Source: Parcubacteria group bacterium (GTDB taxonomy: Bacteria; Patescibacteriota; Minisyncoccia; Phycocordibacterales; Phycocordibacteraceae). Taken from it: 64,000 nucleotides of DNA. The notes beneath the pieces were generated by a model. The model saw nothing but the letters and a program-made list of their open reading frames with translations, made no database searches and was not told the DNA's origin. Location: positions 191,720-255,719 of the forward strand of contig JAQBRE010000002.1 in NCBI GenBank assembly GCA_028286605.1. The letters are read 5' to 3'. This document shows, in pieces, positions 1-62,676 of the stretch (positions within the stretch are counted from its first letter, which is position 1; every line of letters begins with the position of its first letter). The position numbers and the translations under genes were made by a program.

Positions 1-33
1 TTCTTTAAAAGTATTTGATGCTAATTATGTAAA

Positions 34-513
34 ATGATTCAGCTTATGACTGAATATAAGAAAGTTGCTAAACTAAGCTTAGTTGACGCTGCATATGTTG
101 CTGGCTTAATTGACGGCGAAGGAACAATAACTCTTACAAGAAGACAAAAGAACAAGGAGCGTTGCGTTGCCATTACTATCGCAAATACAGAACTAGATCT
201 TCTTGAATTTCCTCTCGCTATTATCAAGGCAGGAATAATTACTTCTAAGAAAACCTTTAAACCAAATCACTCTGCTTCATATGTATATCAAATATCAGGA
301 AGACAAGCTTTAGATCTTTTGGAACAGATAACACCATTTCTAAAATCTTATAAAAAGAATCGAGCTCAATTTTTGCTAAAGGACTATATTCGACTTACGC
401 CGCGTAACGGTCGCTATACAGCGGACCAGCTTCAAGAAAGAAAAGCGTTTGTGGAAGAGTTCTTTACAATTACAGCAAATGGAAACAGCCCGCATGTGCG
501 GGCTGTTTCCTAG
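34..513 (+). CDS. LAGLIDADG homing endonuclease, single-motif (I-CreI-like), 159 aa
   Basis: Contains the motif VAGLIDGEGT (LAGLIDADG signature) and is the right size for a single-motif homodimeric enzyme. The ORF begins 33 nt into the window, so its upstream context is unknown. Confidence 0.75.
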   Translation: MIQLMTEYKKVAKLSLVDAAYVAGLIDGEGTITLTRRQKNKERCVAITIANTELDLLEFPLAIIKAGIITSKKTFKPNHSASYVYQISGRQALDLLEQITPFLKSYKKNRAQFLLKDYIRLTPRNGRYTADQLQERKAFVEEFFTITANGNSPHVRAVS

Positions 514-517
514 ATTG

Positions 518-934
518 TGGAGGTGCGGGAAATCGAATCCCGGTCCGAATCCGGCCTTGAAAGCGAGTCTACGACGCGTAGCTGCTGTTGAAGTTTCAGC
601 AGGAATGTAAAAACGTCAGCGAAACCATTCCTGCCTGAGTCCTAAGTCTTAATAATCAAGCTGGACCAGCCGGACTATCGATCTCTTAGAGAATTACGCC
701 CATACACTCAGCTAAGAGAACCTGAATGTGTGAACGTCGCTAGGCGAACGTGCGGTTAGGCAGTCGCGTAGGCGAACGCAAAGTCGTTCTTCGTGAAAAA
801 CGGAGAGACGAGGCTCTTTGCGCTTGCAACGGTTTTGTTTGCAAGTATTTTTGATTGCGAGATTTAGGTGGTCTGCAATCATCCACCGCGTCGCACGTCT
901 CTCAAGGTACAGACCGTCAAAGCCGGTCACCCCC
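518..934 (-). ncRNA. ssrA: tmRNA (ssrA), one-piece
   Basis: Read on the minus strand, the 5' end is GGGGGUGACCGGCUUUGACGG. The 3' end is a T-arm CGGGA-UUCGAUU-UCCCG followed directly by CACCUCC plus a discriminator A. This gives a 7-bp acceptor stem with a G3:U70 wobble, the alanine identity element. An internal tag reading frame ends ...NDFAFAYATA then UAA. It lies immediately downstream of smpB on the same strand. Confidence 0.7.
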
Positions 935-988
935 AGTGCGGACACTATCAGGAGATGGTGTCCGGACTGCGAGCGGCCCGCATGCGCA

Positions 989-1459
989 CTACTTCTTGCC
1001 GCGCATCGCTTGCTGGATCTCGCGCTCGTCGTCTTTGCGCTTGAGGTCCTGACGCTTGTCCGCTTTGTTCTTTCCGCGGACGATCGCGATGCGCACCTTG
1101 ATGTATCGACCAGCATTATACACTTCAAAAGGCACTACTGTCAACCCTTTCTTCGATTCAGCATCGCCGATCTCTGCGATCTCATCTTTCTTGAGAAGCA
1201 GACGTCGCGTCGCGTCCGGCTGATAGCCTTCAGGCGTGTTGGCGACCTGATACGGAGAGATACTCATCCCAACCAGGAACGCTTCGCCACCGCGTACGAG
1301 CACGCGAGCACCTTCAAGAGACCCCTGTTTCTTACGCAGGGATTTCGTTTCAGCGCCACTCAGCTCGATACCGGCCTGAAAGGGCTTGAGTATCTCGAAG
1401 CGCAGATGTGCTTTCTTGTTTTCGACTAAGTTCATGAAGAAATGGTCGCCATATCGCAC
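989..1459 (-). CDS. smpB: SsrA-binding protein SmpB (probable true start at 1435, MNLVENKKAH...)
   Basis: Shows SmpB-like sequence: KKAHLRFEILKPFQAGIELSGAETKSLRKK...ISPY...LLLKKDEI...GLTVVPFEVY, with a basic C-terminal tail. Confidence 0.85.
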   Translation of the reverse strand: MRYGDHFFMNLVENKKAHLRFEILKPFQAGIELSGAETKSLRKKQGSLEGARVLVRGGEAFLVGMSISPYQVANTPEGYQPDATRRLLLKKDEIAEIGDAESKKGLTVVPFEVYNAGRYIKVRIAIVRGKNKADKRQDLKRKDDEREIQQAMRGKK

Positions 1460-3451
1460 GGCGTTCCACTATTGTATAGTGTGCTAGATATGGCACCTAA
1501 CAGCAACACCACGCCTCCGGAAGGGGGAAAGAAGAAACAGATAAAGAAGAGTTCAGGCACTGCGCCTGAAGACGGAAAGAAGAAGCTGCCAGGATCTGGC
1601 ATGCCCGGCGGATCAGGCTTCCTTATGAATCTCGGAATGACGATCATCATCTTCCTGCTCCTTATTAGCGGGTATTCAGCTATTACTGGCCTCACGAAGC
1701 AGAAGGTACAGGTGCCTCTTTCCCAGGTTGCCGCGGACGTGAAATCTGGAGCCGTGAAGGAAATCGATGTGAACGGAAACGATCTCGATCTCACGTATGC
1801 AGACGGCACGCACAAGACAGCGATGAAGGATCCGGATACGGGTCTTCCTGAAACGCTTGCGACCTATGGCGCTACGCCAGATCAGCTTTCTGCGGTTGCT
1901 ATAAAGATCCAGAATGAATCTGGCTTCAAGTTCTGGTTCCTTACGTTCGCACCGATCATCTTCCCCGTAATACTCCTCGGCATTCTGTTCCTGTTCTTGG
2001 TTCGTCAGGTAAGGGGCGCTGGCATGCAGGCATTCACGTTCGGTCAGTCGAAGGCGCGCATGACTGATCCTGCGGATCAGTCGCAGCGCGTTACGTTCGC
2101 GGACGTCGCCGGCGCGAAGGAAGCGAAGGAAGAATTAATGGAGATAGTGGATTTCTTGAAGAATCCTAAGAAATTCCTGGATATAGGTGCGCGTATTCCT
2201 AAGGGCATCCTGCTTATGGGTGCTCCCGGTACCGGAAAGACGCTGCTCGCGCGCGCAGTCGCCGGCGAAGCCGGCGTGCCATTCTTCTCGATTTCCGGTT
2301 CGGAATTCGTTGAGATGTTCGTGGGTGTCGGCGCGTCGCGTGTGCGTGATCTCTTCCAGATCGCTAAGAAAGCAGCACCTTCGATCATCTTCGTCGATGA
2401 GATCGATGCGGTTGGTCGCGTGCGCGGTTCAGGTGTCGGTGGCGGAAACGATGAACGCGAACAGACGCTCAATCAGATCCTCGTGGAAATGGACGGCTTC
2501 GATCCTACTGAAAAGGTTATCGTCATGGCGGCAACGAACCGTCCGGACGTTCTCGACCCTGCACTGATGCGCCCAGGCCGTTTCGATCGTCGTGTAACGA
2601 TCGATCTTCCTGACCGAAAGGATCGCCTCGAGATTCTTGCCGTGCATTCACGCACGAAGCCATTCGGTCCTGATGTGAATCTTGAAGTGATCGCAGAACG
2701 CACGCCAGGATTCTCGGGTGCAGAACTCTACTCGCTCATGAACGAAGGCGCGATCCTTGCCGCGCGTGAGAATCGCACGGAAGTGACGCAGTACGATCTC
2801 ATCCGCTCAATCGAGAAAGTCATGCTCGGCCCTGAACGCAAGAGCCACCTTATGAATAAGGAAGAGAAGAAGCTCACGGCATATCACGAGGCGGGTCATG
2901 CGCTCGTTACCTCCGTCCTTGAATTCGCTGATCCGGTGCACAAGATATCGATCATCAGTCGCGGACGTGCAGGCGGCTACACGCTCAAGCTTCCGTTCGA
3001 AGATCACAAGATGCAGAGCCGCAAGGAATTCCTTGATGACATCGCGGGTACGCTCGGCGGCTTCGCGGCTGAAGAGCTTATCTACGGCGACGTTACCACC
3101 GGCCCATCAAACGATCTTGCCGTGGTTACGGCGCTCGCACGCGATATGGTCTCACGCTATGGCATGAGCGACGTTATCGGTCCGGTTGCGTTCGCCACGG
3201 ATCATTCGTATCGCAACGAAACGTATTCGCAGGACATCGCTGCGAAGATCGATGCGGAAGTTTCGCGCATGATGGAAGAAGGGAAGAATCGCGCACGTCA
3301 GGTGCTTATGGATCATCGTGGCGCACTTGATGCTATCGCATTGAAGCTCGTTGAAGTCGAGACGCTTGAACGCGAAGAATTCGAGAAGATACTCATTGCT
3401 AACGGAATCACGCCGAAGAGCAAGAAGGAGGAGGACGTGCTGAAGGTGTAA
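1442..3451 (+). CDS. ftsH: ATP-dependent zinc metalloprotease FtsH (alternative start at 1490)
   Basis: Has an N-terminal TM region, Walker A GAPGTGKT, an AAA second region of homology, and the zinc-binding motif HEAGHA. Confidence 0.95.
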
Positions 3452-3472
3452 GAGATACGAGCATAAAAAGAA

Positions 3473-3504
3473 AGACGGCGGCCTCGGAGAGGTCGCCGCT
3501 TTTT
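3473..3504. terminator. Putative bidirectional rho-independent terminator
   Basis: A GC-rich hairpin GACGGCGGCC-tcggagag-GTCGCCGC is followed by TTTTT. It sits between the convergent ftsH and small-membrane-protein genes. Confidence 0.5.
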
Positions 3505-3520
3505 CGTATAGAACGAAGTC

Positions 3521-3739
3521 CTATCGAAGGTCTTCGGGTTTCGTCGGTGCGGTTGAGACGCTACCGAGATAGGTGATCGCCAGCAGCACGACTCCCAGGA
3601 GTAGAATCACTCCTGTAAACGTCATGACGCTGGCAGCTTCGGGATAATGCGGCATGGCGTGCCCGCCGCCGAATATGAGCCCGAAGCCTGCTATGAATAG
3701 CAGAAGCACGGTCCATTTACGCTTAGTCATCAATAGCAT
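3521..3739 (-). CDS. Small hypothetical membrane protein (72 aa)
   Basis: An ORF with two hydrophobic segments and no recognisable motif. Confidence 0.4.
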   Translation of the reverse strand: MLLMTKRKWTVLLLFIAGFGLIFGGGHAMPHYPEAASVMTFTGVILLLGVVLLAITYLGSVSTAPTKPEDLR

Positions 3740-3820
3740 CCCTCTGTTTCAATCCTTTCTGACCATATAAGAAAGGACGGACATGCGCAAGAAATGGAAA
3801 GCGTGTAAAGTATCTGAGAC

Positions 3821-3894
3821 GCATGCGTAGCTCAGTTGGTTAGAGCTCGGAGCTTATACCTCCGCGGTCCCTGGTTCGAGTCCAGGCGCATGCA
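3821..3894 (+). tRNA. tRNA with anticodon UAU (reads AUA; tRNA-Ile(UAU)-type)
   Basis: Folds as a cloverleaf: acceptor GCAUGCG/CGCAUGC, U8, D-stem GCUC/GAGC, anticodon stem CGGAG/CUCCG, loop CUUAUAC, T-arm CCUGG-UUCGAGU-CCAGG, discriminator A. No CCA is encoded. Confidence 0.7.
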
Positions 3895-4731
3895 CTATTT
3901 AGGGAATATATCGGTGAGCTGATTCGAGTTGTAGAAATCCAGTGCAAGACCGCCGAAACTGAAGGTTTGATTGCCTGCGGTAATCTCTGCACCGCCAACC
4001 TGCGGACTCGCATTTGGCATCGAATGCTGGAAACCGATATTGTAGAGCGTCGAGAGCACTGCGATATTGCTATCGATGGGGAAGCCGGCGTTTCGCCACT
4101 GCGCTTCGATTTCTTTTATATAGAGGCCTGCATACACATAGCTCCAGTAATGGTTGTGCTGGTCAGTCATGCGCGTGAAGCGTGCCGTGGTGATATCAGT
4201 CGTCGTCGCAGGAAAGTCGAGCAGATGCGCGTACTGGTCGCCAGGATAGTACGGAGATGTCGGATCCTTCAGATTATTTTCAACCTGTATGGCTGTCGCT
4301 TCCTTCATGCCCATGACACCCCAGCTGAACTGCGTTTGCGAGCCGAGAATCTTAAGCGGCAGGAAGAACTGTTTGTAGAGTTCGCGTTCAGTGAAGAAAA
4401 GGCGCAGCTGTTCGGCAACGAGATTCGCGGCAATTAAACGCGCAGGTACGCCGGAGGCACTCGCTGCTGTAGTAAGTGCTGTTTGATCTTTCGTGAGTGC
4501 TGCAGCGATGACGCCCCACTCTTCGGTCTGCTGCCATGGAAGATTCGAATCGTTGGAGACAGCCTGAGAAGCTGCGGGGCCAAGAAATGATTCACGCTGG
4601 AGGTCTACGACGCCTTTTTCATTCGTCAGGCCGAACTTCACGGCGAAGTAGCCGGCAACCAGAAAAATGCCGATCGCTGCGAAGATATAAATGACGATAT
4701 TGAGTCCAATCTTAAGGTGCTTTTTCTCCAT
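3895..4731 (-). CDS. Hypothetical membrane-anchored secreted protein (278 aa)
   Basis: Has an N-terminal TM helix then a large extracytoplasmic domain. No recognisable catalytic motif. Confidence 0.5.
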   Translation of the reverse strand: MEKKHLKIGLNIVIYIFAAIGIFLVAGYFAVKFGLTNEKGVVDLQRESFLGPAASQAVSNDSNLPWQQTEEWGVIAAALTKDQTALTTAASASGVPARLIAANLVAEQLRLFFTERELYKQFFLPLKILGSQTQFSWGVMGMKEATAIQVENNLKDPTSPYYPGDQYAHLLDFPATTTDITTARFTRMTDQHNHYWSYVYAGLYIKEIEAQWRNAGFPIDSNIAVLSTLYNIGFQHSMPNASPQVGGAEITAGNQTFSFGGLALDFYNSNQLTDIFPK

Positions 4732-4784: not shown

Positions 4785-7076
4785 TTATTCCATGTGGAGG
4801 CGTTCGTCGGAGCGGAGCGCGATAGCTTTGAGGGTGGGGTACTTGGTGAGCTCAGGGTCTTCCTTGATGAGGCGCGCAGCTTCGCTGCGCGCAGCCTCCA
4901 CCAGCCGCATATTCTTTATCGCTTCCATAGCGATATCCGAGATACCCCATTGGCGACCGCCGACGAGTTCACCTGCGCCGCGCAGCGCGAGGTCGTATTC
5001 AGCGAGCTCGAAACCGTCTTTCGCCGTCATGAGTGCTTTCAGGCGATCCTTTGTTGCGGGGCCGTATGATTCCGGCAGTGCGAAACAATACGCCTGATTA
5101 TTCGAACGGATGACACGCCCGCGCAGCTGATGCAGCTGCGCCAGTCCGAATCGCTCGGCACCTTCGATAAGTATCACCGTTGCATTCGGCACGTTCACGC
5201 CGACCTCAACCACAGAGGTTGCGACAAGGATATCAACTTCACCGTTACTGAATCGTTTCATCACGTCCTCTTTATCTTTCGGCGTCATCTTGCTATGCAG
5301 GATATCGATAATGGCGTCTGGAAATACATGCAGCTTGAGCCGCTCAGCTTCTGCCTTTACGCTCTTCGCTTGTACCGCCAGTTCTTTCGTAGGGTCGGGT
5401 TCGTCGATGCGCGGACAAATCACGTAGCCCTGGCGGCCCTTGTCCATTTCCTCTTTCAATCGCGCATATGCGAGTTGTCGTTTCTCAGGATCGAGTACTT
5501 CGGTGATGATGGGTTTACGGCCTACAGGCATTTCATCCAGCAGCGAAACGTCGAGGTCTCCGTATATGGTGAGCGCGAGCGTGCGAGGAATCGGTGTGGC
5601 GGTCATGGAAAGAAGATGGGGAGAGATATCGCCTTTGCGCGTGAGCTTCTGGCGATGCGCTTTGCCGAAGCGATGCTGCTCGTCGATAATCGCGTATGCG
5701 AGGTTCTGGAATTCAAGTGATTTGTACACGAGCGCATGCGTACCAATGACGATAGGTATCTCGCCATTCGCTACCCACTTCGTGAATTGCGCACGCGATA
5801 CTTTCGCAGACTCTTCGCCACGAATCTTGGAAGGGAATTTTCGGCACTCGCTGCCGGTCATAAGACCGATAGGAATGGGATGATCTTTGAAATAGGAAAC
5901 GAAGGTAGAGAAATGCTGCTTCGCGAGGATTTCGGTAGGACACATGTAGGCAACCTGCAGCGTGCCGGATTTTCGACCAGGCGGGTAGGAGGTGGCCACC
6001 ATATAGGCCGTTGCAGCAGCAACGGCCGTTTTTCCTGAACCCACATCGCCTTCAAGCAAACGGCGCATCGGATGAGACTGCTCGAAGTCATCAATAATGC
6101 TGTTTATAGAGCGGCGCTGCGCGCCGGTTGGCGGAAAGGGAAACGACTCGACGAATGCATCCAGGGACTTCCTATCAACCTGCACTTGCAGTGCTTTCTC
6201 CTCAAGAGTCTGTGCGCGCTCGCGCTGCATAGCGAGCTGTATCGCGAACACTTCTTCGAAGGCGAAACGCTTTCGCGCTGCTTCGCTGTCTCCTTTTTTC
6301 ATCGGTGCGTGTACCCATACCAACGCCGTCGCTAAGCTCGGTAAGTTATAGCGCTCAAGGATATCTGCAGGTATCGGATCTTGAATCGCTTCATGCACAT
6401 GCGCTTCGAACAGTTTCTTCTCTGCATGCAGGAACCACAAGCTCGAAACGCCGCGGCTTTCCGGATAAATCGCATAGAGCGCGTCCTCGATGATGGGTGC
6501 GCCTTCTTCTTTCTTGAAAAGCGTATCATGCACGTCTTCCGGCGATACAGGCGACTTGTCGATTTCCGGATTCGCGAGATACATCTTCGCTGCGGTGCCG
6601 GCGATACGCCCGGTCGCTTTCACCACCATGCCGTCTGCGACCATCTTCGCCATGTACGGCTGCGAGAACCACATCAGCTTGATGCGTCCGCTCGCGTCTT
6701 CAAGCCATGCCTCGGCCATCGGTCGCTTACTCTTCCATGATTTCTTCGCTTCGGGCTTACGTATAGTGCCGTATAGCGTAACTTCGGTGCCAGGCGTTAC
6801 AGCGGCAACGGTACCAGTCGGTCCTGCAGCCTCATAGCGCGCAGGGAAGTGGTATAGCAAATCACGTATCGTGCGGATACCGAGGCGCGTCAGCGCCGAT
6901 TTCTGGTCGGTACGAAGGCGTGTGAAGTGCTGCGTGACGAGGTCGGTCGGCTTCATACAGTCATTATACCGTTTTAAGATATACTGCACTTCTATGGACC
7001 CAAAGGCTAAAAAAATTGTTGCTGAATACAAGAAAGCAGGTGCACGCATCGAGACGAAAAGCCGTGTGAAGCTCAA
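4785..7076 (-). CDS. recG: ATP-dependent DNA helicase RecG (probable start at 6956, MKPTDLV...)
   Basis: Has a wedge/OB N-terminal region, Walker A GDVGSGKT, DEQHRFG, the SMTATPIPRTLAL helicase motif, and HQLRGRV. Confidence 0.9.
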   Translation of the reverse strand: MSFTRLFVSMRAPAFLYSATIFLAFGSIEVQYILKRYNDCMKPTDLVTQHFTRLRTDQKSALTRLGIRTIRDLLYHFPARYEAAGPTGTVAAVTPGTEVTLYGTIRKPEAKKSWKSKRPMAEAWLEDASGRIKLMWFSQPYMAKMVADGMVVKATGRIAGTAAKMYLANPEIDKSPVSPEDVHDTLFKKEEGAPIIEDALYAIYPESRGVSSLWFLHAEKKLFEAHVHEAIQDPIPADILERYNLPSLATALVWVHAPMKKGDSEAARKRFAFEEVFAIQLAMQRERAQTLEEKALQVQVDRKSLDAFVESFPFPPTGAQRRSINSIIDDFEQSHPMRRLLEGDVGSGKTAVAAATAYMVATSYPPGRKSGTLQVAYMCPTEILAKQHFSTFVSYFKDHPIPIGLMTGSECRKFPSKIRGEESAKVSRAQFTKWVANGEIPIVIGTHALVYKSLEFQNLAYAIIDEQHRFGKAHRQKLTRKGDISPHLLSMTATPIPRTLALTIYGDLDVSLLDEMPVGRKPIITEVLDPEKRQLAYARLKEEMDKGRQGYVICPRIDEPDPTKELAVQAKSVKAEAERLKLHVFPDAIIDILHSKMTPKDKEDVMKRFSNGEVDILVATSVVEVGVNVPNATVILIEGAERFGLAQLHQLRGRVIRSNNQAYCFALPESYGPATKDRLKALMTAKDGFELAEYDLALRGAGELVGGRQWGISDIAMEAIKNMRLVEAARSEAARLIKEDPELTKYPTLKAIALRSDERLHME

Positions 7077-15467: not shown

Positions 15468-15500
15468 AAACAAGACCGCGTTCGCGGTCTTGTTTCTTAG
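15468..15500. terminator. Bidirectional rho-independent terminator
   Basis: A near-perfect hairpin AAACAAGACCGCG/CGCGGTCTTGTTT is followed by TCTT. Confidence 0.55.
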
Positions 15501-15587
15501 CGGAGACGGAGGGATTCGAACCCTCGAAGGGTTTAACCCCTTACATCGTTAGCAGTGATGCGCCTTCGACCACTCGGCCACGTCTCC
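15501..15587 (-). tRNA. tRNA-Ser (anticodon GCU), long variable arm
   Basis: Has acceptor GGAGACG/CGUCUCC, U8, a 3-bp D-stem, anticodon loop CUGCUAA, a long variable arm UAAGGGGUUAAACCCUUCG, T-arm GAGGG-UUCGAAU-CCCUC and discriminator G. Confidence 0.85.
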
Positions 15588-15603: not shown

Positions 15604-16221
15604 TCACGTTGCGTATCTATTCAAATGTTTCGGATTGTGGGAGGAAATGACCCTAAAGTAGGCTTTCAAGTCCGCTTTGCTTTCTAGACGAACTCCATTA
15701 CGACTAGAAAATCTTGGACACATCCCAAGTTCTTTAAAGAACGTATATACAGTCTTACGAAGAGGTTCCGATGCACTACTAAAATCAAGCTTCTTATACG
15801 TGTATCGTTTACCTTTGGAAATATATGAATGATCGAATACGCAGCCGTCTGTATCTACCAATCCGCGAATACACGCGATAAGAAATTTAGGATTTTCTTT
15901 AATCCAGCAAGGAATATCAATTTGTGAATGTGTTTTATTTCCTTTAGGTAGTCCTGCGCTATGCAAAAAACGAACTAGTTCAATTCTGGATATTACAAGA
16001 TCATTTACAGACCGGGTAGGTCTTTTTTGAATATGCGGCTCGATAGCAAATAATTTTTGTATGAGATTACTTACGTATCTTGAGTATTCAAGGTCATTTG
16101 TGTGATGAAGACTTATCTTTACTTGATATTTGGATATGTTTCCATCGCCAATCATGATTCCTATGAATTCTGCGAGTTCAATGCTTTTTTCTGGTTGCTG
16201 TATGCGCTTAGTCCAGACCAT
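15604..16221 (-). CDS. LAGLIDADG homing endonuclease, two-motif (205 aa)
   Basis: Has two LAGLIDADG-type motifs, IGIMIGDGNIS and IRGLVDTDGCV. Lies 16 nt upstream of tRNA-Ser on the same strand. Confidence 0.75.
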   Translation of the reverse strand: MVWTKRIQQPEKSIELAEFIGIMIGDGNISKYQVKISLHHTNDLEYSRYVSNLIQKLFAIEPHIQKRPTRSVNDLVISRIELVRFLHSAGLPKGNKTHSQIDIPCWIKENPKFLIACIRGLVDTDGCVFDHSYISKGKRYTYKKLDFSSASEPLRKTVYTFFKELGMCPRFSSRNGVRLESKADLKAYFRVISSHNPKHLNRYAT

Positions 16222-33538: not shown

Positions 33539-34162
33539 ATGGGAACCACTACGGTTACAACGACCGGTCCGGCCGTACATTTCATTAATGTCGAGTATTT
33601 TTTCCGACTCCTGTACGACCTCATCTTCGGCCTGCACATTGGTTCGGTGAACGTCGGCATCGGCAACACATCTGGTCTCGTTACGCTTGCCGGACAGATC
33701 TGGCTTTTCATAAGCGTCATCGCGTGGATCGTCGCGCTCGGTGCATGCTGGGCGCTCGTCTATTACACGACACGGTACTGGCAGTTGCTTGAACAGGAGA
33801 ATGAACGATACACGACTATCTCTGAACCGGAGGCACATGTACAGGTGGAACATTCACGCTGGGCGTACATAAAACAGCTTATCGAGAGTCCGCAGGAAAG
33901 CGATTGGCGCCAGGCGATCATCGAAGCAGATATCATGCTGGACGAAGTGCTTACGCGTTCGGGATATCAGGGCAATACGATTGGCGATAAGCTGAAGACC
34001 GCGAATCCAGATCGCTTCACGACCATTCGCAATGCATGGGACGCGCATACTGTGCGCAATGAAATTGCGCACTCGGGCTCTGCATATCAGCTCACGAACC
34101 ACGCTGCATTCCGCACGATTCAGAATTACGAAGCGGTGTTCCGCCAGTTCAACGAGATTTGA
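33539..34162 (+). CDS. Membrane-anchored protein with a C-terminal HEPN-like domain (tentative)
   Basis: Has two N-terminal TM helices. The C-terminal ~100 aa are helical and contain RNEIAH, which is Rx4H, the HEPN catalytic motif pattern. Confidence 0.5.
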   Translation: MGTTTVTTTGPAVHFINVEYFFRLLYDLIFGLHIGSVNVGIGNTSGLVTLAGQIWLFISVIAWIVALGACWALVYYTTRYWQLLEQENERYTTISEPEAHVQVEHSRWAYIKQLIESPQESDWRQAIIEADIMLDEVLTRSGYQGNTIGDKLKTANPDRFTTIRNAWDAHTVRNEIAHSGSAYQLTNHAAFRTIQNYEAVFRQFNEI

Positions 34163-34827
34163 TTCGGTATTTCAGCAATACTTGCGAGTATTCTTCTTCG
34201 AAGCGAGGTGCTGTTTCGTACTTTTATGCGAATCGTGCCGATATAGGTTTTTGAATCACGATCTACGTTTCCATACCCGCTTATATATGTTGGTTTTGAA
34301 AATTGTTCTCTGGGAATATTTGTCTCTTTAGACCAGAAAGAAGTAATTCTCTCGGTTTCGTCATTGTATAAATTATTAATTGTTATTCGAGCATGAATAT
34401 CTTTTAGTGGAATTTGATAACACATATCGAGCCATTGAATTGCGGTATTTATAATCTTTGGGTCTGAATTCGTAAATCCAAACTCCTGACTTCCTCTTTT
34501 GTATCCTTCACCCCAATACAAACCAATTCCAAGCATAAAAAGATCACGGATTTGTAACATGTCTATATCTTCTTTCCCTTGCTTTGTCTGAGCCAAGATG
34601 TCATGAATTTTTCGAGTCTTGTTTTTCTCAATCCACGGAGCAAGTGCTGCTAGTGACGCAGTGCGATGTCGTTCAGACAAGTACTCCTTCTGCTTAGTCG
34701 TTAGAGAAACGTTTTTACACCATCTACTTACAGTGCTGCTGCTTACTCTTAGGTTGTCGGCAATTTCCTTAATACTCATTCCGCTCGCGCGGAGTTCCAA
34801 AGCCCTCCCATGAAGTTCATTTTTCAT
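34126..34827 (-). CDS. HTH-LAGLIDADG homing endonuclease (single-motif) with N-terminal helix-turn-helix
   Basis: Has the HTH MSIKEIADNLRVSSSTVSRW and the LAGLIDADG-type motif LFMLGIGLYWGEGYK. Divergent from the intron-containing tRNA(CAU). Confidence 0.65.
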   Translation of the reverse strand: MKNELHGRALELRASGMSIKEIADNLRVSSSTVSRWCKNVSLTTKQKEYLSERHRTASLAALAPWIEKNKTRKIHDILAQTKQGKEDIDMLQIRDLFMLGIGLYWGEGYKRGSQEFGFTNSDPKIINTAIQWLDMCYQIPLKDIHARITINNLYNDETERITSFWSKETNIPREQFSKPTYISGYGNVDRDSKTYIGTIRIKVRNSTSLRRRILASIAEIPNQISLNWRNTAS

Positions 34828-56596: not shown

Positions 56597-56618
56597 GTTA
56601 TAGCAACATGAACATAGT

Positions 56619-56646
56619 CAATAAAGAATCCAAATATTCTTTATTG
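56619..56646. repeat. Perfect 11-bp inverted repeat (hairpin) just after the ABC transporter stop
   Basis: CAATAAAGAAT-ccaaat-ATTCTTTATTG, overlapping a TTGACA hexamer. Confidence 0.35.
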
Positions 56647-56663
56647 ACATAATCTTAATTTTT

Positions 56664-57278
56664 ATGGAGACTGAAAGCGGATTACTACAGGAGATGGTTA
56701 TGAATCCTATTAAAACAGTTCTGCTGCACGGAAAGCCTGGTGCTGGGAAAGGCACTCAAGCAAAATTACTGATTGATGGCTTAGGCTGGCGTTACTGCGG
56801 TACCGGCGATTTTTTTCGAGATCAAGCCAAACACGATAATGAGCTAGGCAGGCGGATACGAATTGCCTACGAGACTGGGACGTTCCTTCCGCAATGGTTA
56901 ATTACGCGCCTTTTTGTGAACGAGACTATGTGTCTTAATCTTTCACAAGGAATTGTTTTTGATGGCTTTGCCCGTACAAGTCTTCAGGCAAGCGAGATTC
57001 ATAGTATTTTATCCTGGTTCGAACGCCCATATCTTGTCATTAATCTTGAAGTGAGTGATTCGATAGCTCTTCAGCGTATTGCTCAGCGAAATTTGATAGA
57101 AGATAGAACAGACGGAGATTCACTAGAAAAATTACAGAAGCGTTTCTCAGTTCATCGAAACCTCAGTGAACCAGCACTTACAATTTTCGAGAATGCCAAT
57201 GGATTAAAACGCATTGATGGCGAGCGTCCAATTGAGGTAGTTCATCAAGACATACTCGATCTGCTTCAATCTTACTGA
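56664..57278 (+). CDS. Adenylate-kinase-family nucleoside monophosphate kinase (divergent, short LID)
   Basis: Has the P-loop GKPGAGKGTQA and NMP-binding GTGDFFRD. Confidence 0.7.
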   Translation: METESGLLQEMVMNPIKTVLLHGKPGAGKGTQAKLLIDGLGWRYCGTGDFFRDQAKHDNELGRRIRIAYETGTFLPQWLITRLFVNETMCLNLSQGIVFDGFARTSLQASEIHSILSWFERPYLVINLEVSDSIALQRIAQRNLIEDRTDGDSLEKLQKRFSVHRNLSEPALTIFENANGLKRIDGERPIEVVHQDILDLLQSY

Positions 57279-57279
57279 G

Positions 57280-57312
57280 CGCCCGCCCTAGTGTGGGCGC
57301 TTTTTGTTATTG
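57280..57312 (+). terminator. Putative rho-independent terminator
   Basis: Hairpin GCGCCC-gccctagtgt-GGGCGC followed by TTTTTG. Confidence 0.5.
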
Positions 57313-57372
57313 ACTTATATATCCGTTAAGTTAGCGTTTGTACGCGTACCATTTCTATGAAATAATTGTTGC

Positions 57373-57990
57373 ATGACCAGCATCTTAGGAAAGGGCTTTG
57401 TTTTACTCACCTCGACAGGTTTTTCCAATACAAAAGTTGCTGATACTTTAATATCAAATCTGACGAATATTCCGCAGAAACGTGCTGCCGTAGTGACAAC
57501 TGCAGCCGAAGACAAAGCTGAGAATCGTTATTCAATCTTAGCCAAAGAGCAACTTGAGGGAATGGGATTTGGCCAAGTTGATTTTCTGGATTTAGAAATA
57601 GACGGTTCAGAAGGTGTTCCGTCTTACGATCTCATCTATGTCTGTGGAGGTAATACCTTCAAGCTTCTCTTTTTCGCTAGATCTACAGATTTCAAAGAAA
57701 AAATACTTGAGGTACTTTCACGCGGAGGTTGTTATGTGGGGGTTAGTGCTGGCAGCCTTATTGCTGGACCTTCAATACAGATAGCGAATGAAGTAGCACC
57801 TGACAAAAACGATGTAAGTTTGAAAGATTTCACTGGTTTATCAATTGTTTCTTCTATAGTTTTTCCACATTATACGGTAGAGCATGAGTTAGAAATAATA
57901 TCCTTTGAATCAAGGAATTCAGTTAAGATTACTCGTCTGACGAATGATCAGGCACTCTTGATTATGCAAGATTCACAAATATTAATATGA
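57373..57990 (+). CDS. Peptidase S51 (PepE/cyanophycinase-like) family protein
   Basis: Has the Ser nucleophile context VGVSAGSLIAG and an S51-like layout. Confidence 0.65.
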   Translation: MTSILGKGFVLLTSTGFSNTKVADTLISNLTNIPQKRAAVVTTAAEDKAENRYSILAKEQLEGMGFGQVDFLDLEIDGSEGVPSYDLIYVCGGNTFKLLFFARSTDFKEKILEVLSRGGCYVGVSAGSLIAGPSIQIANEVAPDKNDVSLKDFTGLSIVSSIVFPHYTVEHELEIISFESRNSVKITRLTNDQALLIMQDSQILI

Positions 57991-58748
57991 TGAAGCATAT
58001 TGTTTTTATAACTGATTGCAGTGATATTGCATACAGCGAACTACGTGGTACAGCATTGAGCGAATTAGCTAAACTAACAGCACAAGACAATATCTCTATT
58101 GAGCCTGTTGTGAGCGTTAAACCATTTTCAATTCTAAATGGAAACTTCGTTCTCCGTCTTATGGCCGAATCGTATCCGGAAGGTACCGTCTTTTCTGTAA
58201 TTCTTAACCCTTCAAAGAATCGTCCAGAACGCCTTTTAGGACGAACTAAGAAAAATAACTTTCTATTTGTCGGCGCTAACACCGGAGTGTTTGAATGGTT
58301 CCTTAGAGATTTTGGTGTCGCCGAACTGTATGAACTTAAGGATCCAGGTTTTCTGCCATTTGGTGGAAAATACGTACATGCTCCCGCTGTGGCTAAATTA
58401 GCTAGCGGTATTCCACCTGCTGAACTCGGAAATCCATTTCAAGTGAGTGGTTTGCGTAAACTAGAAATACTTCCTGGAACTATCGTGCATGTTGATAATT
58501 TTGGACTAATGAAATTTAATACCGTTTTACCGAAATTTGAAGAAGGGGCCCGACTGCGTATAACCGTTAAGGGACTTTCTATCCCGGCTGTGTATTCAAC
58601 ACGAATGATGAATCGAGAAACAGGAGAATGGGTTATCTATCCAGGCAGTTCTCTTGGATTACCGGAGCTAGGGAAAGTTCGTCAAAACGGAGCATTAGAG
58701 CTGGGAGTTGCGGAAGGTGATCAAATTTTCATCGAGATCGAAAAATAA
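57987..58748 (+). CDS. DUF62 / SAM hydroxide adenosyltransferase (fluorinase/chlorinase superfamily)
   Basis: The N-terminus IVFITDCSDIAYSELRG is ITDFG-like. The IVHVDNFGLMKFN region matches the DxFGN motif. Confidence 0.65.
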   Translation: MMKHIVFITDCSDIAYSELRGTALSELAKLTAQDNISIEPVVSVKPFSILNGNFVLRLMAESYPEGTVFSVILNPSKNRPERLLGRTKKNNFLFVGANTGVFEWFLRDFGVAELYELKDPGFLPFGGKYVHAPAVAKLASGIPPAELGNPFQVSGLRKLEILPGTIVHVDNFGLMKFNTVLPKFEEGARLRITVKGLSIPAVYSTRMMNRETGEWVIYPGSSLGLPELGKVRQNGALELGVAEGDQIFIEIEK

Positions 58749-59369: not shown

Positions 59370-60617
59370 TCACAGGATCGAATGGTCGATTTTAAAGAAC
59401 ATACGTCGACCGACACGAACTCGCCATCCACCTTCAGGCACCTGATCATCCTGCTTAATTAGCACGGAATCAGTGACAGATCGAACAGCGTTTTGCTCGA
59501 AAAGGCGCCGTAGTGCTGCCTTGCTTTGGAATTTACCGCTTGCATAGAGCGCAACGAGCGCTGTTGCTCCCGGCTCAACATTTAGTTGAACGTAATCATC
59601 ATCGTGGATAACTTGCTGAGAAAAGAGACGCTCGAAAGTATCGCGTTCCCGCAAGCCATCGTCAGGGTTTTTCGTTTCGAGGCTTGCGACAACGGTTGCA
59701 AGTTGCTTTTTAGCCTCAAACGGGTTCGCCTCAACGAAAATTCTGAGTTCATCAAGCTCACGCTGATGGACATCGGCAAAGCTTAAAAAATATTGGAAAA
59801 TGAGACGATCGGGGATCGACATGATCTTTCCAAATTTATCAGCTTGGCTTGAATTTACCGCGATATAGTTGTTGTAGCTTTTGCTCATCTTTCTGCCATC
59901 ACCACTAGTACCTTCGATGATGGGGGTCATAAGAATGACCTCTTCCTCTAACCCAGCATTCCGCATAATAGTCCGGCACTGCTGGAAATTAAGAAGCTGA
60001 TCTATGCCCCCGACTTCTACGTCGGTTTGCAGATGAAGCGAATCGATTCCCATTAGAACGCCATAGCAAACCTCAGCCAAGGACACTCCTTGTCCTTTTC
60101 TGCCTCGTTCCCGGAAATCCTCCCGCTGGAGGGCCTCTGCGAGGTTTAGTGACTGAAAGATGCCGAAAACATCACTGAGTGACATGGGATTTAGCCACGT
60201 CGTGTTGTGATGAATGGACACTTTTTCGACAGAAAGGTACTTCCCAATCTGGGACACATAAGTCGTCTTGTTTTCCGCGATCTTTTCAGGAGACAGCGGG
60301 ACTCGACCGGTGTCACGCTCAGTCGGATCGCCAACTCGAGCGGTAAAATCACCGATGATAAGGTCGACATGGTTACCGGTTCTCGCAAAAATATTCAACA
60401 CGAGAATTGGCACTACGTGCCCCAAATGAACATCTGTGGCAGTTGGATCAATACCGAATTTGACGCGCAACTTTCGTTGGTCGAGCAAGTGCCGCAAGCG
60501 CTCTTCAGTGATTATCTGTTGACACTTTGGCTGAAGAAAACCGACAATCTCATCAGCTATCATTCCTTCCCAGTTCTCAATGGCCCGGGCAAGGAATTTC
60601 TGGTCAAAACGAATCAT
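59370..60617 (-). CDS. tyrS: Tyrosyl-tRNA synthetase
   Basis: Has class I HIGH (TATDVHLGH), KMSKS, and a C-terminal S4-like domain. Confidence 0.85.
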   Translation of the reverse strand: MIRFDQKFLARAIENWEGMIADEIVGFLQPKCQQIITEERLRHLLDQRKLRVKFGIDPTATDVHLGHVVPILVLNIFARTGNHVDLIIGDFTARVGDPTERDTGRVPLSPEKIAENKTTYVSQIGKYLSVEKVSIHHNTTWLNPMSLSDVFGIFQSLNLAEALQREDFRERGRKGQGVSLAEVCYGVLMGIDSLHLQTDVEVGGIDQLLNFQQCRTIMRNAGLEEEVILMTPIIEGTSGDGRKMSKSYNNYIAVNSSQADKFGKIMSIPDRLIFQYFLSFADVHQRELDELRIFVEANPFEAKKQLATVVASLETKNPDDGLRERDTFERLFSQQVIHDDDYVQLNVEPGATALVALYASGKFQSKAALRRLFEQNAVRSVTDSVLIKQDDQVPEGGWRVRVGRRMFFKIDHSIL

Positions 60618-60840
60618 TTGTTTGCACCTTTCGTGCTGGGTTGCTGGTTAGAAGCCTAATGACTTGTACATACTTCTAAGCACCAGAAAAGCACAAATTA
60701 ACATTTCTGTCAAAATTCACATAATTATTTAATCGTTTGAAATACTAACATTTTCACTTTGTTTTCGTGTCAACTGGCTATATCAGTGTATTTTCATAAG
60801 ACAGCTATTCTTTTAATTTTTCTAGTTTAGAATTAAAGAA

Positions 60841-61499: not shown

Positions 61500-62096
61500 A
61501 TGGATACGAGCAATGCAGCTTTTTTCATCATTCCTGGATTTAAGGATCAAGTGAAGGATACTCAATACAAGTGGCTCGTTTCACACCTTAAAGACAAAGG
61601 CGTAACTGTTATGCAGACTCCTGTGGAATGGAATAATAAGACGCTATCGCAAAACGCTGCTGAATTCGTAACGTATTTCAACACCAATCAGAAAAAGGAA
61701 AATTACATACTTGGTTTTTCACTCGGGGCAGTACTAGCTCTCATGACCGCAAACCTGCTGCTTCCCAAGAAGATATTCCTTTGCTCGCTGAGCGCGGTCT
61801 TTGCTGAAGACCTGAAAGCCATTGATGCATCTTTTGCGGATTATGCAGGAAAGAGACGACAAGCAGACTTCGCGACTCTAAACGGAAGAATGCTTGCAAA
61901 GAATCTTAAGGTACCGGCAGTCGTATTCTATGGCGAGAAAGAAATAGAGGAATTTCCTAAGCTAAAGAATAGGTGCGAGGAAACAGTACGTCTCGCGAAA
62001 GATGCAAAGCTGGTTATGGTGAAAGATGCACCGCACCAGATAGATTTCCTTGCATACAAAGAGGCAATTAAAAAAGTTCTAAATGGAATAGTTTAG
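61500..62096 (+). CDS. Alpha/beta-hydrolase fold protein
   Basis: Has the nucleophile elbow GFSLG and a C-terminal His context DAPHQ. Confidence 0.65.
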   Translation: MDTSNAAFFIIPGFKDQVKDTQYKWLVSHLKDKGVTVMQTPVEWNNKTLSQNAAEFVTYFNTNQKKENYILGFSLGAVLALMTANLLLPKKIFLCSLSAVFAEDLKAIDASFADYAGKRRQADFATLNGRMLAKNLKVPAVVFYGEKEIEEFPKLKNRCEETVRLAKDAKLVMVKDAPHQIDFLAYKEAIKKVLNGIV

Positions 62097-62106
62097 AATC
62101 AAATGA

Positions 62107-62676
62107 ATGTCTTGGGATGATTACCTAAAAGCAACGAGCAATAGTAAGTGTCGACCTCTTCTTAGAGAGGCTTTTCAGTATCTTAAAAAGACTGACAGAG
62201 GAAATGCTTTAGATTTGGGAGCTGGGGCACTGGGAGACACCAGCTTCCTTTTGAAGGCAGGATTTACGGTGATCGCCGTAGACAGTAATCCTAAAATTCT
62301 GGAATACTCCAAACCGCATGAGAATCTCTCAGTGGAGATTAGTTCCTTTGAGAACTATTCTTTTCCTGAGAATTCATTTGATTTAATAAATGCTCAGTAT
62401 GCTTTGCCTTTCAATAAGCCAGAAACATTCGAATCAGTTTTTCAAAAGATGATTCTTTCCATGAAAGACAGCGCTATTTTTACGGGTCAGCTATTCGGTA
62501 CCGAAGACGGGTGGGCAGAGAAGAAAACTATGACATTCCTTTCTGCAGAGCAAGTAAATAAATTAATGGAGAACTTTAAGAAAGTACACGTTTTACGTGA
62601 AGAAAAGAAATTAGGTCCTACGGCAACAGGAATAGACAAGTTTTGGCACGTATTTCATATAATTGCAGAGAAATAG
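62107..62676 (+). CDS. Class I SAM-dependent methyltransferase
   Basis: Has motif I ALDLGAGALGDTS and motif II-like VIAVDSN. Confidence 0.75.
   Translation: MSWDDYLKATSNSKCRPLLREAFQYLKKTDRGNALDLGAGALGDTSFLLKAGFTVIAVDSNPKILEYSKPHENLSVEISSFENYSFPENSFDLINAQYALPFNKPETFESVFQKMILSMKDSAIFTGQLFGTEDGWAEKKTMTFLSAEQVNKLMENFKKVHVLREEKKLGPTATGIDKFWHVFHIIAEK

Follow-up and report, generated by a model that had tools for sequence, protein, structure and literature searches.

The open reading frame (ORF) at the left end of the window (the whole 64,000-nt stretch of DNA analysed here) is, with a probability of roughly 0.7, a mobile, free-standing homing endonuclease gene (HEG) of a lineage that would have the 3' region of ssrA, the tmRNA gene, as its homing locus, the cleavage target being read from position only. 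Under this reading, the enzyme would act as a homodimer on ssrA alleles that have no HEG, with its cut falling within or close to the T-arm/acceptor DNA, an inverted repeat and thus suited to a homodimeric enzyme. The break would then be repaired from a HEG-carrying copy, bringing in both the HEG and the adjoining ssrA 3' end, i.e., co-conversion.

That the ORF is a LAGLIDADG gene, as the original prediction held, is borne out by the motif AGLIDGEGT at residues 23-31 of its product, with the catalytic acid E29 lying within GLIDGEG, and by a match to the Pfam family LAGLIDADG_3 (PF14528) at 24.7 bits, above the cut-off of 22.5; the score against LAGLIDADG_1 (PF00961), 22.2 bits, is just below the cut-off of 23.1. 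Translation likely starts at the ATG at position 46, since the homologues have their first residue aligned with M5 and the structure model assigns low confidence to residues 1-5. All 30 invariant columns of a 24-sequence alignment, including D27 and E29, are kept. The comparison with the I-CreI family that the original prediction had suggested led, in a PDB profile search, to I-MsoI and I-CreI, with the acidic catalytic motif residue aligned, and also to the bI3 maturase. Foldseek likewise matched the AlphaFold (AF2) model (pLDDT 87.6) to I-CreI, I-MsoI and I-CvuI (TM 0.65-0.70, probability 1.00). The elements of this model (H16-29, E30-35, E44-51, H54-64, E68-71, E83-88, H89-102) describe an alpha-beta-beta-alpha-beta-beta-alpha core fold, and a disordered tail is predicted for residues 151-159. 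Judged by sequence and model, the product is apparently an intact I-CreI-type single-domain LAGLIDADG enzyme, and its length of 159 aa with a single motif is consistent with a homodimer. The likeness to I-CreI, I-MsoI and I-CvuI (one LAGLIDADG motif, ~150 aa, same predicted fold, aligned acidic residue) comes, however, with only ~20% identity, and those enzymes are encoded in algal chloroplast 23S rRNA introns and cut rDNA. In annotations, endonuclease genes of this kind carry the label "hypothetical."

The gene is foreign by composition, with a GC content of 36.5% versus 51% for the window and a GC3 of 29% versus 61% for the neighbouring ftsH, and it lies outside any intron or intein, in agreement with its predicted free-standing status. 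It converges on an uninterrupted tmRNA gene (Table 1), and its stop codon was rightly placed directly at the tmRNA 3' end: the gap to the discriminator base is only 4 nt (514..517). The tmRNA gene was called by ARAGORN at 517..934 with the tag ANKTVASAKSLVSPFFTKNDFAFAYATA*, and Rfam RF00023 covers it over the full model (1-374) at 114 bits; CCA is not encoded. Its T-arm reads CGGGA-TTCGATT-TCCCG (plus-strand 526..542), a variant with an A53:U61 pair. The hairpin beyond the discriminator acts as the ssrA terminator, and the final ~10 codons of the endonuclease ORF fall within it; one bidirectional terminator hairpin is thereby common to the two genes, and the same layout of hairpin and ORF end recurs in six related loci (L167, L007, L017, L024, L040 and L068). 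On the other side of the ORF, the AT-rich spacer presumably contains the HEG promoter.

Table 1. Features at the left end of the window, in window coordinates
Feature	Position	Strand	Remarks
AT-rich spacer	1..33	+	18% GC; upstream of the endonuclease ORF
Zero-difference tract versus strain L001	1..593		HEG and final 76 nt of ssrA (518..593)
Free-standing single-domain LAGLIDADG homing endonuclease gene (HEG)	34..513	+	159 aa
Hairpin	481..510		13-bp stem, 9 G-C pairs; 7 nt beyond discriminator 518 on the tmRNA strand
Uninterrupted tmRNA (ssrA) gene	518..934	-	ARAGORN, Rfam, sequence reading
tmRNA discriminator A	518
tmRNA acceptor 3' strand	519..525 (plus-strand)		CACCTCC
tmRNA T-stem	526..530 and 538..542 (plus-strand)
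tmRNA T-loop	531..537 (plus-strand)
smpB	989..1459	-	upstream of ssrA; conserved in lineage
ftsH	1442..3451	+	next after smpB

The position beside ssrA was predicted to be meaningful rather than incidental, and the homologues speak for this: a tmRNA gene adjoins the endonuclease gene in 71 of the 73 homologue loci with sufficient flank, a frequency that chance would not produce. The 80 genome loci were classed as 62 type A, 2 type B, 5 type C, 1 type D and 1 type E, with 9 lacking a tmRNA match; in 7 of these 9, the contig breaks off beside the HEG. Five layouts occur, with the HEG downstream of an intron-bearing ssrA, inside the intron, convergent on an intron-bearing ssrA, or co-directional with or convergent on an intronless one. 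In type A, the HEG follows some 45-100 nt downstream of an ssrA gene with a T-loop group I intron, outside that intron; a single homologue lies within a tmRNA intron (L066), and Patescibacteria relatives share with the window a HEG converging on an intronless tmRNA gene. An intron is present in 64 of the 71 ssrA genes (types A, D and E), and the endonuclease gene sits just outside the tmRNA gene in 63 of these 64. All 64 introns interrupt the gene at TTCGAT|T and obey the boundary rule of a -1 U and a terminal G; this, together with the published insertion site and sub-threshold Rfam Intron_gpI matches (26-34 bits against a gathering score of 50), identifies them as group I introns. Among the related loci, 62 of the 71 tmRNA genes with an intron or an odd T-loop escaped ARAGORN.

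The ssrA-adjacent homologues, at 46-73% identity, span at least 8 bacterial phyla, and one relative (L167) is syntenic with the window (HEG, tmRNA, smpB, ftsH). The closest homologue of the protein, P0002, is 73% identical. Another relative (L058) lacks the tmRNA body but has the intron with exon 2, the terminator, the HEG and the leftover copy of the ssrA 3' end. A further locus (L005) was examined for a decayed remnant of ssrA; the match is limited to TGTGGAG (p=0.22), and we regard the locus as a true negative. More distant homologues (30-41% identity) adjoin phage-borne tmRNA genes (viral relatives L169-L172, L178, L179, L183 and L185); those from IMG/VR reach at most 41% identity, several of them beside phage tmRNA genes. 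A known phage as vector was rejected, GenBank phages reaching at most 34% identity, and a search for a plasmid vector gave no plasmid match. On these sequence comparisons, the window ORF belongs to a LAGLIDADG clade tied to ssrA, a link for which we found no description in any paper.

Comparison with a second contig of the same species (L001) would be compatible with recent movement. The window and L001 show 0 differences over the tract given in Table 1 and 13 in the next 592 nt (594..1185), a split with P ~6e-4 under a uniform model and for this single strain pair, in which L001 is a 1.3-kb metagenome contig. Six of the differences from L001 fall in smpB and are synonymous, because the SmpB protein is 100% identical. 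The tract is a candidate co-conversion tract, as judged from these two sequences. A HEG-free "empty site" was not found within the same species, nor was an empty-site partner for L167 found among the 80 control loci via its left-hand AIRS-domain gene.

How the carrier's own ssrA would be spared may differ between lineages. In most, the T-loop intron would split the site, as in "collaborative homing"; after splicing, the core GGG-TTCGATT-CCC is found in 64/64 HEG-linked ssrA genes that carry the intron (types A, D and E), and the exact GGGTTCGATTCCC core is absent from 9/9 HEG-linked ones that are intronless. In the window, a variant T-arm would have to do the protecting ("intronless homing"). 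Immunity through this particular T-arm is not supported: A53:T61 stems and odd T-loops, the same and others, occur in HEG-free Parcubacteria too. For the phylum, immunity by sequence variation is unsupported, since only ~12% of HEG-free Parcubacteria controls have the exact "target" core and ~88% are without it.

It is rather unlikely, in our estimate, that the gene is a decaying or domesticated one, i.e., an old homing arrival now inherited vertically and either inactive or of use to the host, for instance by binding DNA or RNA at ssrA or, in the intron-bearing relatives, perhaps as a tmRNA-intron maturase. The HEG clades largely track host taxonomy, with CPR clades and a Nitrospira clade, and much of the inheritance is therefore vertical, which also counts against the mobile reading; some copies may be inactive or domesticated. 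LAGLIDADG maturases are also an established class, with the bI3 maturase among the PDB matches, and the HEG is packed tightly against ssrA with a terminator common to both. For the window, however, there is no intron to mature, the catalytic residues are invariant, GC3 is strongly foreign, and a tract identical between strains lies beside differing flanks. Moreover, in 80 related Parcubacteria smpB-ssrA loci, retrieved with smpB as the query for endonuclease-free controls, the HEG is missing from every one.

The mobile, ssrA-homing gene that we favour may in addition have carried a piece of its target with it. At 11 loci (L008, L025, L034, L048, L054, L062, L065, L071, L072, L082 and L040), the HEG lies between the working ssrA 3' end and a leftover duplicate of that end without the intron, each copy being significant against shuffles (p<=0.005) and that of L072 matching at 28/28 bases. 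We tentatively propose, without calling it probable, that a cross-phylum LAGLIDADG lineage, which phages carry as well, homes to ssrA as a cassette with its own replacement 3' end, whether or not this contains a T-loop group I intron, and that the resident 3' end is displaced downstream as the leftover copy. The perfect intronless T-arm copy beside the L072 HEG is awkward, posing a problem if a 22-bp site lies wholly within those 28 nt. Leftward of the HEG, an ssrA 3' repeat was seen neither for the window, where 116 nt of flank could be searched, nor in the syntenic L167.

Direct ssrA 3' repeats flanking the HEG in 11 relatives would also be expected of an integrase-mediated genomic island, of which the HEG would be leftover cargo between attL and attR, and ssrA 3' ends are classic sites of island integration (PMC11915505; PMC3146451). 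We nevertheless consider this very improbable. Where relatives have complete flanks, the repeats enclose only ~0.5 kb, with the HEG as the sole content; in L167, the list of genes called within 3 kb includes no integrase family; and one member of the family sits inside a tmRNA intron (L066). A family found beside ssrA in 71/73 loci across phyla is, furthermore, not what the cargo of unrelated islands would look like, the cargo family here being itself ssrA-specific. Of the predicted mobile-element remnant at ssrA, the direct repeat of the ssrA 3' end was thus recovered in related loci, whereas its identity as a classical integrase-borne island was not upheld.

The other origin put forward in the original prediction, an ORF from a group I intron (or an intein-like insert) in an rRNA, tRNA or other gene beginning left of the window, has a precedent in Patescibacteria, where group I introns with LAGLIDADG ORFs are frequent in rRNA and tRNA genes (PMC13011429), but we give it almost no credence: L001 extends the left flank by 83 nt of AT-rich spacer followed by a bidirectional terminator hairpin (aaaagcccgctcc-aaa-ggagcgggctttt) with no RNA gene seen, Rfam Intron_gpI has no match in 1..4000 at E<=1, the tmRNA gene shows no interruption, the end of the ORF overlaps the ssrA terminator, and the left neighbour in L167 is a divergent protein gene.

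A free-standing endonuclease gene homing to ssrA would stand close to several known systems, matching none of them fully. Group I introns that interrupt the tmRNA T-loop, a small number of them containing LAGLIDADG HEGs, were reportedly described by Williams in 2002. A 2025 census counted 883 intron-bearing forms in 21 phyla among 97,179 catalogued tmRNA genes, with TTCGAT|T ("position 7") as the main intron site and HEGs inside 4.1% of the introns, having looked only within introns (PMC11915505). The host gene is the same, LAGLIDADG enzymes occur in both settings, the 64 intron-bearing relatives use the published main site, and the L066 HEG is intronic; the window, however, is intronless, with the HEG outside the RNA gene and on the opposite strand, and the layout of the 62 relatives with the HEG downstream of exon 2 goes unmentioned in that census.

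In collaborative, or trans, homing, as proposed for the cyanophage psbA intron with F-CphI (PMC6083498) and for T4 mobE with the I-TevIII intron (PMC2790892), a free-standing HEG lies beside a gene whose intron is HEG-less, and the intron probably shields the carrier. The type A relatives fit this exactly, although F-CphI and mobE concern phage protein-coding genes and EndoVII-like or HNH enzymes, and here a LAGLIDADG enzyme is paired with an RNA gene on a bacterial chromosome; in the window, moreover, the HEG has no intron partner. Intronless homing is exemplified by the seg genes of phage T4, e.g., SegF. In these systems (reviewed in PMC2988022), a free-standing intergenic HEG is thought to cut a nearby site in HEG-free genomes and to co-convert the flanks, with which the tract of Table 1 is compatible, but the seg products belong to the GIY-YIG enzymes and are encoded by phages. 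Integrase-borne islands, in turn, share the occupied and duplicated ssrA 3' end and differ in their integrase, none being seen here beside a cargo of ~0.5 kb.

The low rate of internal HEGs (4.1%) leaves the spread of tmRNA introns across 21 phyla unexplained, and it is on this question that flanking HEGs bear. If the endonuclease does travel as a cassette with its own ssrA 3' end, most tmRNA introns would be mobilised by an endonuclease gene sitting outside the intron, which would explain why an endonuclease is found in only 4% of them, and the same endonuclease would persist at ssrA in Patescibacteria in the absence of any intron. Free-standing LAGLIDADG genes have, to our knowledge, rarely been reported from bacterial chromosomes. 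The family offers a natural series of layouts (in the intron, beside the intron, intronless) for studying how HEGs and introns associate and separate, and its ssrA-linked endonucleases would be new meganucleases against a near-universal bacterial gene.

The ORF lying beside the tmRNA gene (ssrA) is best read as a free-standing I-CreI-type LAGLIDADG homing endonuclease gene (HEG) of an ssrA-homing lineage, the gene itself having probably moved recently, a reading to which we assign a probability of roughly 0.7. The original prediction that a LAGLIDADG ORF abuts the 3' end of the convergent tmRNA gene is correct as written: since the HEG stop codon ends at 513, only 4 nt separate the two genes. 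The tmRNA gene matches the whole of Rfam model RF00023 (114 bits), its discriminator base was read from the sequence at 518, its CCA is not encoded, and its T-arm (CGGGA-TTCGATT-TCCCG) is uninterrupted. Given that the final HEG codons run through a hairpin which, on the tmRNA strand, sits 7 nt beyond the discriminator and scores there as a terminator, this one hairpin is common to both convergent genes.

Coordinates of features in the window and in numbered relative loci (L numbers)
Locus	Feature	Position	Strand	Remarks
Window	AT-rich stretch	1..33		33 nt, opens the window
Window	LAGLIDADG ORF (HEG)	34..513	+	159 aa; motif AGLIDGEGT
Window	Hairpin	481..510		13-bp stem; last ~10 HEG codons pass through it
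Window	tmRNA gene (ssrA)	517..934	-	ARAGORN
Window	smpB	989..1459	-	
Window	ftsH	1442..3451	+	
Window	tRNA-Ile, anticodon UAU	3821..3895	+	
Window	tRNA-Ser(GCU)	15500..15587	-	
Window	Second free-standing LAGLIDADG ORF	15604..16221	-	205 aa; motifs GIMIGDGN, GLVDTDGC; low-GC island
Window	HTH ORF	34126..34827	-	233 aa; N-terminal HTH_23; LAGLIDADG-like motif GIGLYWGEGY; low-GC island
Window	Islands below 42% GC (window 51%)	about 56600..58100, 60350..60800, 61850..62450		
L058	Intron, exon 2, terminator, HEG, leftover T-loop-to-CCA copy	2678..3540		
L167	T-loop ATCGTTC in place of TTCGATT	3445..3478 (T-arm)		T54/A58 to A54/T58
L068	T-loop ATCGTTC in place of TTCGATT	3474..3506 (T-arm)		T54/A58 to A54/T58
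L006	5' tmRNA fragment near HEG	1677..1968		partial extra copy
L048	3' tmRNA fragment near HEG	4977..5116		partial extra copy
L083	Second "intron end + exon 2" near HEG	about 2839		

The HEG product, labelled by NCBI as [quoted passage not shown], scores 24.7 bits against Pfam LAGLIDADG_3, whose cut-off is 22.5, and 22.2 bits against LAGLIDADG_1, slightly below that model's cut-off. Compared with 23 homologues, it retains all invariant columns, including D27 and E29 of GLIDGEG. A profile search of PDB sequences returned I-MsoI, a LAGLIDADG maturase, and I-CreI. The AlphaFold model (mean pLDDT 87.6; low confidence at residues 1-5 and 151-159) has the LAGLIDADG core topology, with the homodimeric enzymes I-CreI, I-MsoI, and I-CvuI as top structural matches (TM 0.65-0.70, ~20% identity). 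The true start is probably the ATG at 46, because family members begin at the aligned M5. The composition of the gene is foreign to the window (GC 36.5% vs 51%; GC3 29% vs 61% for ftsH).

A protein search returned 702 homologues, mostly of ~145 aa, across many phyla. At L002-L004, the homologue lies directly downstream of a tmRNA gene whose T-loop is interrupted by a group I intron of ~280 nt (boundaries ...GGGTTCGAT|CAAC...CTG|TCCCGCCGCCTCCACCA). Layouts were typed at 80 homologue loci from species-representative genomes, with tmRNA genes annotated by ARAGORN, Rfam, an nhmmer profile, and explicit T-arm/acceptor matching. An intron-bearing tmRNA gene (intron 251-453 nt, median 276) followed by a same-strand HEG ~45-100 nt past CCA (type A) accounts for 62 of the 80. 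The remainder comprise (i) an intronless tmRNA gene followed by a same-strand HEG (type B; L014, L071), (ii) a HEG convergent on an intronless tmRNA gene, as in the window (type C; L007, L017, L024, L040, L068), with hosts that are all Patescibacteria or unclassified "bacterium" MAGs, (iii) a HEG convergent on an intron-bearing gene (type D; L055), (iv) a HEG within the intron (type E; L066), and (v) nine loci with no tmRNA match, seven of them with a contig end no more than ~250 nt from the HEG. That leaves two true exceptions: at L005 there is nothing but the HEG, a hairpin, and the heptamer TGTGGAG (not significant as an ssrA remnant), and at L058 no tmRNA body is present across the 6.4 kb. 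The L058 cassette, which has a minus-strand protein gene upstream, has either relocated or inserted by homing at an ssrA 3' fragment that had itself been displaced. L167 (59% identity) has exactly the window's synteny (HEG, tmRNA, smpB, ftsH) and a divergent AIRS-domain gene to the left of the HEG; its tmRNA gene was missed by ARAGORN. Hosts include Nitrospirota, Gamma- and Betaproteobacteria, Anaerolineae, Planctomycetota, Verrucomicrobiota, Fraserbacteria, and Patescibacteria; as the cultured isolates Thiocapsa marina, Methylophaga sulfidovorans, and Thioalkalivibrio sulfidiphilus are among them, the pattern is not a metagenome-binning artefact.

More distant relatives on IMG/VR contigs (30-41% identity) also adjoin phage-borne tmRNA genes, some of the permuted two-piece form; among these contigs are L169-L172, L183, and L185 (8-275 kb, some with tRNA arrays), in which the LAGLIDADG gene is immediately adjacent. 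The extra partial tmRNA copies in L006, L048, and L083 may be marks of other mobile elements at ssrA. Contigs end in or beside the tmRNA/HEG junction at L003, L004, L016, L020, L025, L028, L036, L050, L052, L059, L064, L069, L080, L165, and L166, and strain heterogeneity in intron/HEG presence could have broken these assemblies.

The original prediction offered a mobile-element remnant at ssrA or an intron of a left-hand gene, of which the mobile, ssrA-tied character stands. The duplicate ssrA 3' end that it proposed looking for occurs in 11 relatives as an intronless T-arm, acceptor, and CCA beyond the HEG (each p<=0.005 vs shuffles), starting 5-155 nt past the HEG stop codon in ten type A/B loci and 138 nt beyond the HEG start in L040; no such repeat was found in the 116 nt extant of the window species' far flank, nor at L167. 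At L071, the working tmRNA has a GCGAG/CTCGC T-stem and the leftover copy the canonical GCGGG...CC(T)GC; this mismatch points to joint arrival of the HEG and the working 3' end. An integrase island does not fit, as what these relatives have between the copies is just the ~0.5-kb HEG, together with the intron and exon 2 in type A. The intron-ORF reading is rejected because L001, a conspecific metagenome contig of 1,268 nt encoding an identical protein, extends 83 nt further left into an AT-rich spacer and bidirectional terminator hairpin with no RNA gene (sub-threshold, terminator-like Rfam matches only), and Rfam detected no group I intron in window positions 1..4000 (E<=1).

Recent movement of the HEG would fit the comparison with L001: there are no differences in 1..593 (HEG and terminal 76 nt of ssrA) and 13 in 594..1185 (P ~6e-4 under a uniform model, for a single pair). 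Six of these 13 fall in smpB, where the protein is identical and every change is therefore synonymous. In this one pair, such a pattern is the expected trace of a recent homing or gene-conversion event in which the ssrA 3' end was co-converted. Among 80 related Parcubacteria smpB-ssrA loci drawn from metagenomes via smpB, none carries the HEG; about 55 have complete tmRNA genes, nearly all with a terminator hairpin within a few tens of nt. In a neighbour-joining tree, type C HEGs fall in two adjacent clades, Nitrospira HEGs form a separate clade, and a few odd-phylum members sit within the proteobacterial clade; inheritance thus seems to have stayed largely inside lineages, interrupted now and then by long jumps.

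The enzyme may recognise the T-arm DNA of ssrA, an inverted repeat that suits a homodimer, and the T-arm cores of HEG-linked genes fit this reading. All 64 intron-bearing HEG-linked genes have the spliced core GGG-TTCGATT-CCC, split in the DNA at TTCGAT|T, the published "position 7" tmRNA intron site (PMC11915505). The exact core is found in 0/9 intronless HEG-linked genes: GGA-TTCGATT-TCC (window, L007), GGG-TCCGATA-CCC (L017, L024), GGA-ATCGTTC-TCC (L068), GGG-ATCGTTC-CCC (L167), a TTCGAA loop (L040), GAG-TTCAACT-CTC (L014), and GAG-TTCGATT-CTC (L071). Since no more than about 12% of the Parcubacteria controls, which lack a HEG, have the exact core, and A53:T61 stems also occur without a HEG, this argument has no statistical force for their phylum. 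The leftover copy at L072 is perfect (28/28 bases), which is hard to square with a target site confined to those 28 nt. The ATCGTTC T-loop, in which the reverse-Hoogsteen pair would be retained, was seen in HEG-linked genes only (none among about 55 controls lacking a HEG). In several Parcubacteria (L099, L136, L158, L017), the ssrA terminator hairpin is extended into a long inverted repeat with a far arm that is the acceptor 3' strand reversed (e.g., CACCTCCACAAAT...ATTTGTGGAGGTG), such that the precursor trailer could pair with the acceptor end.

Elsewhere in the window, the second LAGLIDADG ORF (Pfam LAGLIDADG_3, 43 bits) has a stop codon that precedes the 5' end of tRNA-Ser by 16 nt, and shows no tBLASTn similarity to the ssrA-linked HEG; two endonuclease genes are therefore present in the window, both directly adjoining a tRNA-like gene. 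Pfam finds only the HTH in the 233-aa ORF, and ORFs in the three islands below 42% GC look like ordinary metabolic genes.

Group I introns in the tmRNA T-loop comprise 883 unique forms from 21 phyla, of which 36 (4.1%) contain a LAGLIDADG HEG, a proportion the authors set against 54% for archaeal rRNA group I introns; that study makes no mention of HEGs outside the tmRNA gene (PMC11915505). The closest mechanistic precedents would be phage collaborative/trans homing, i.e., F-CphI with the psbA intron (PMC6083498) and mobE with I-TevIII (PMC2790892), and intronless homing by seg genes (reviewed in PMC2988022). The window HEG would work in the same way; unlike these precedents, it belongs to another enzyme family, resides on a bacterial chromosome, has an RNA gene as target, and, in this window, lacks an intron partner. 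As a full-text literature search found no description of a free-standing ssrA-flanking HEG, the family-wide HEG-ssrA pattern appears to be undescribed, and it bears on the spread of tmRNA introns.
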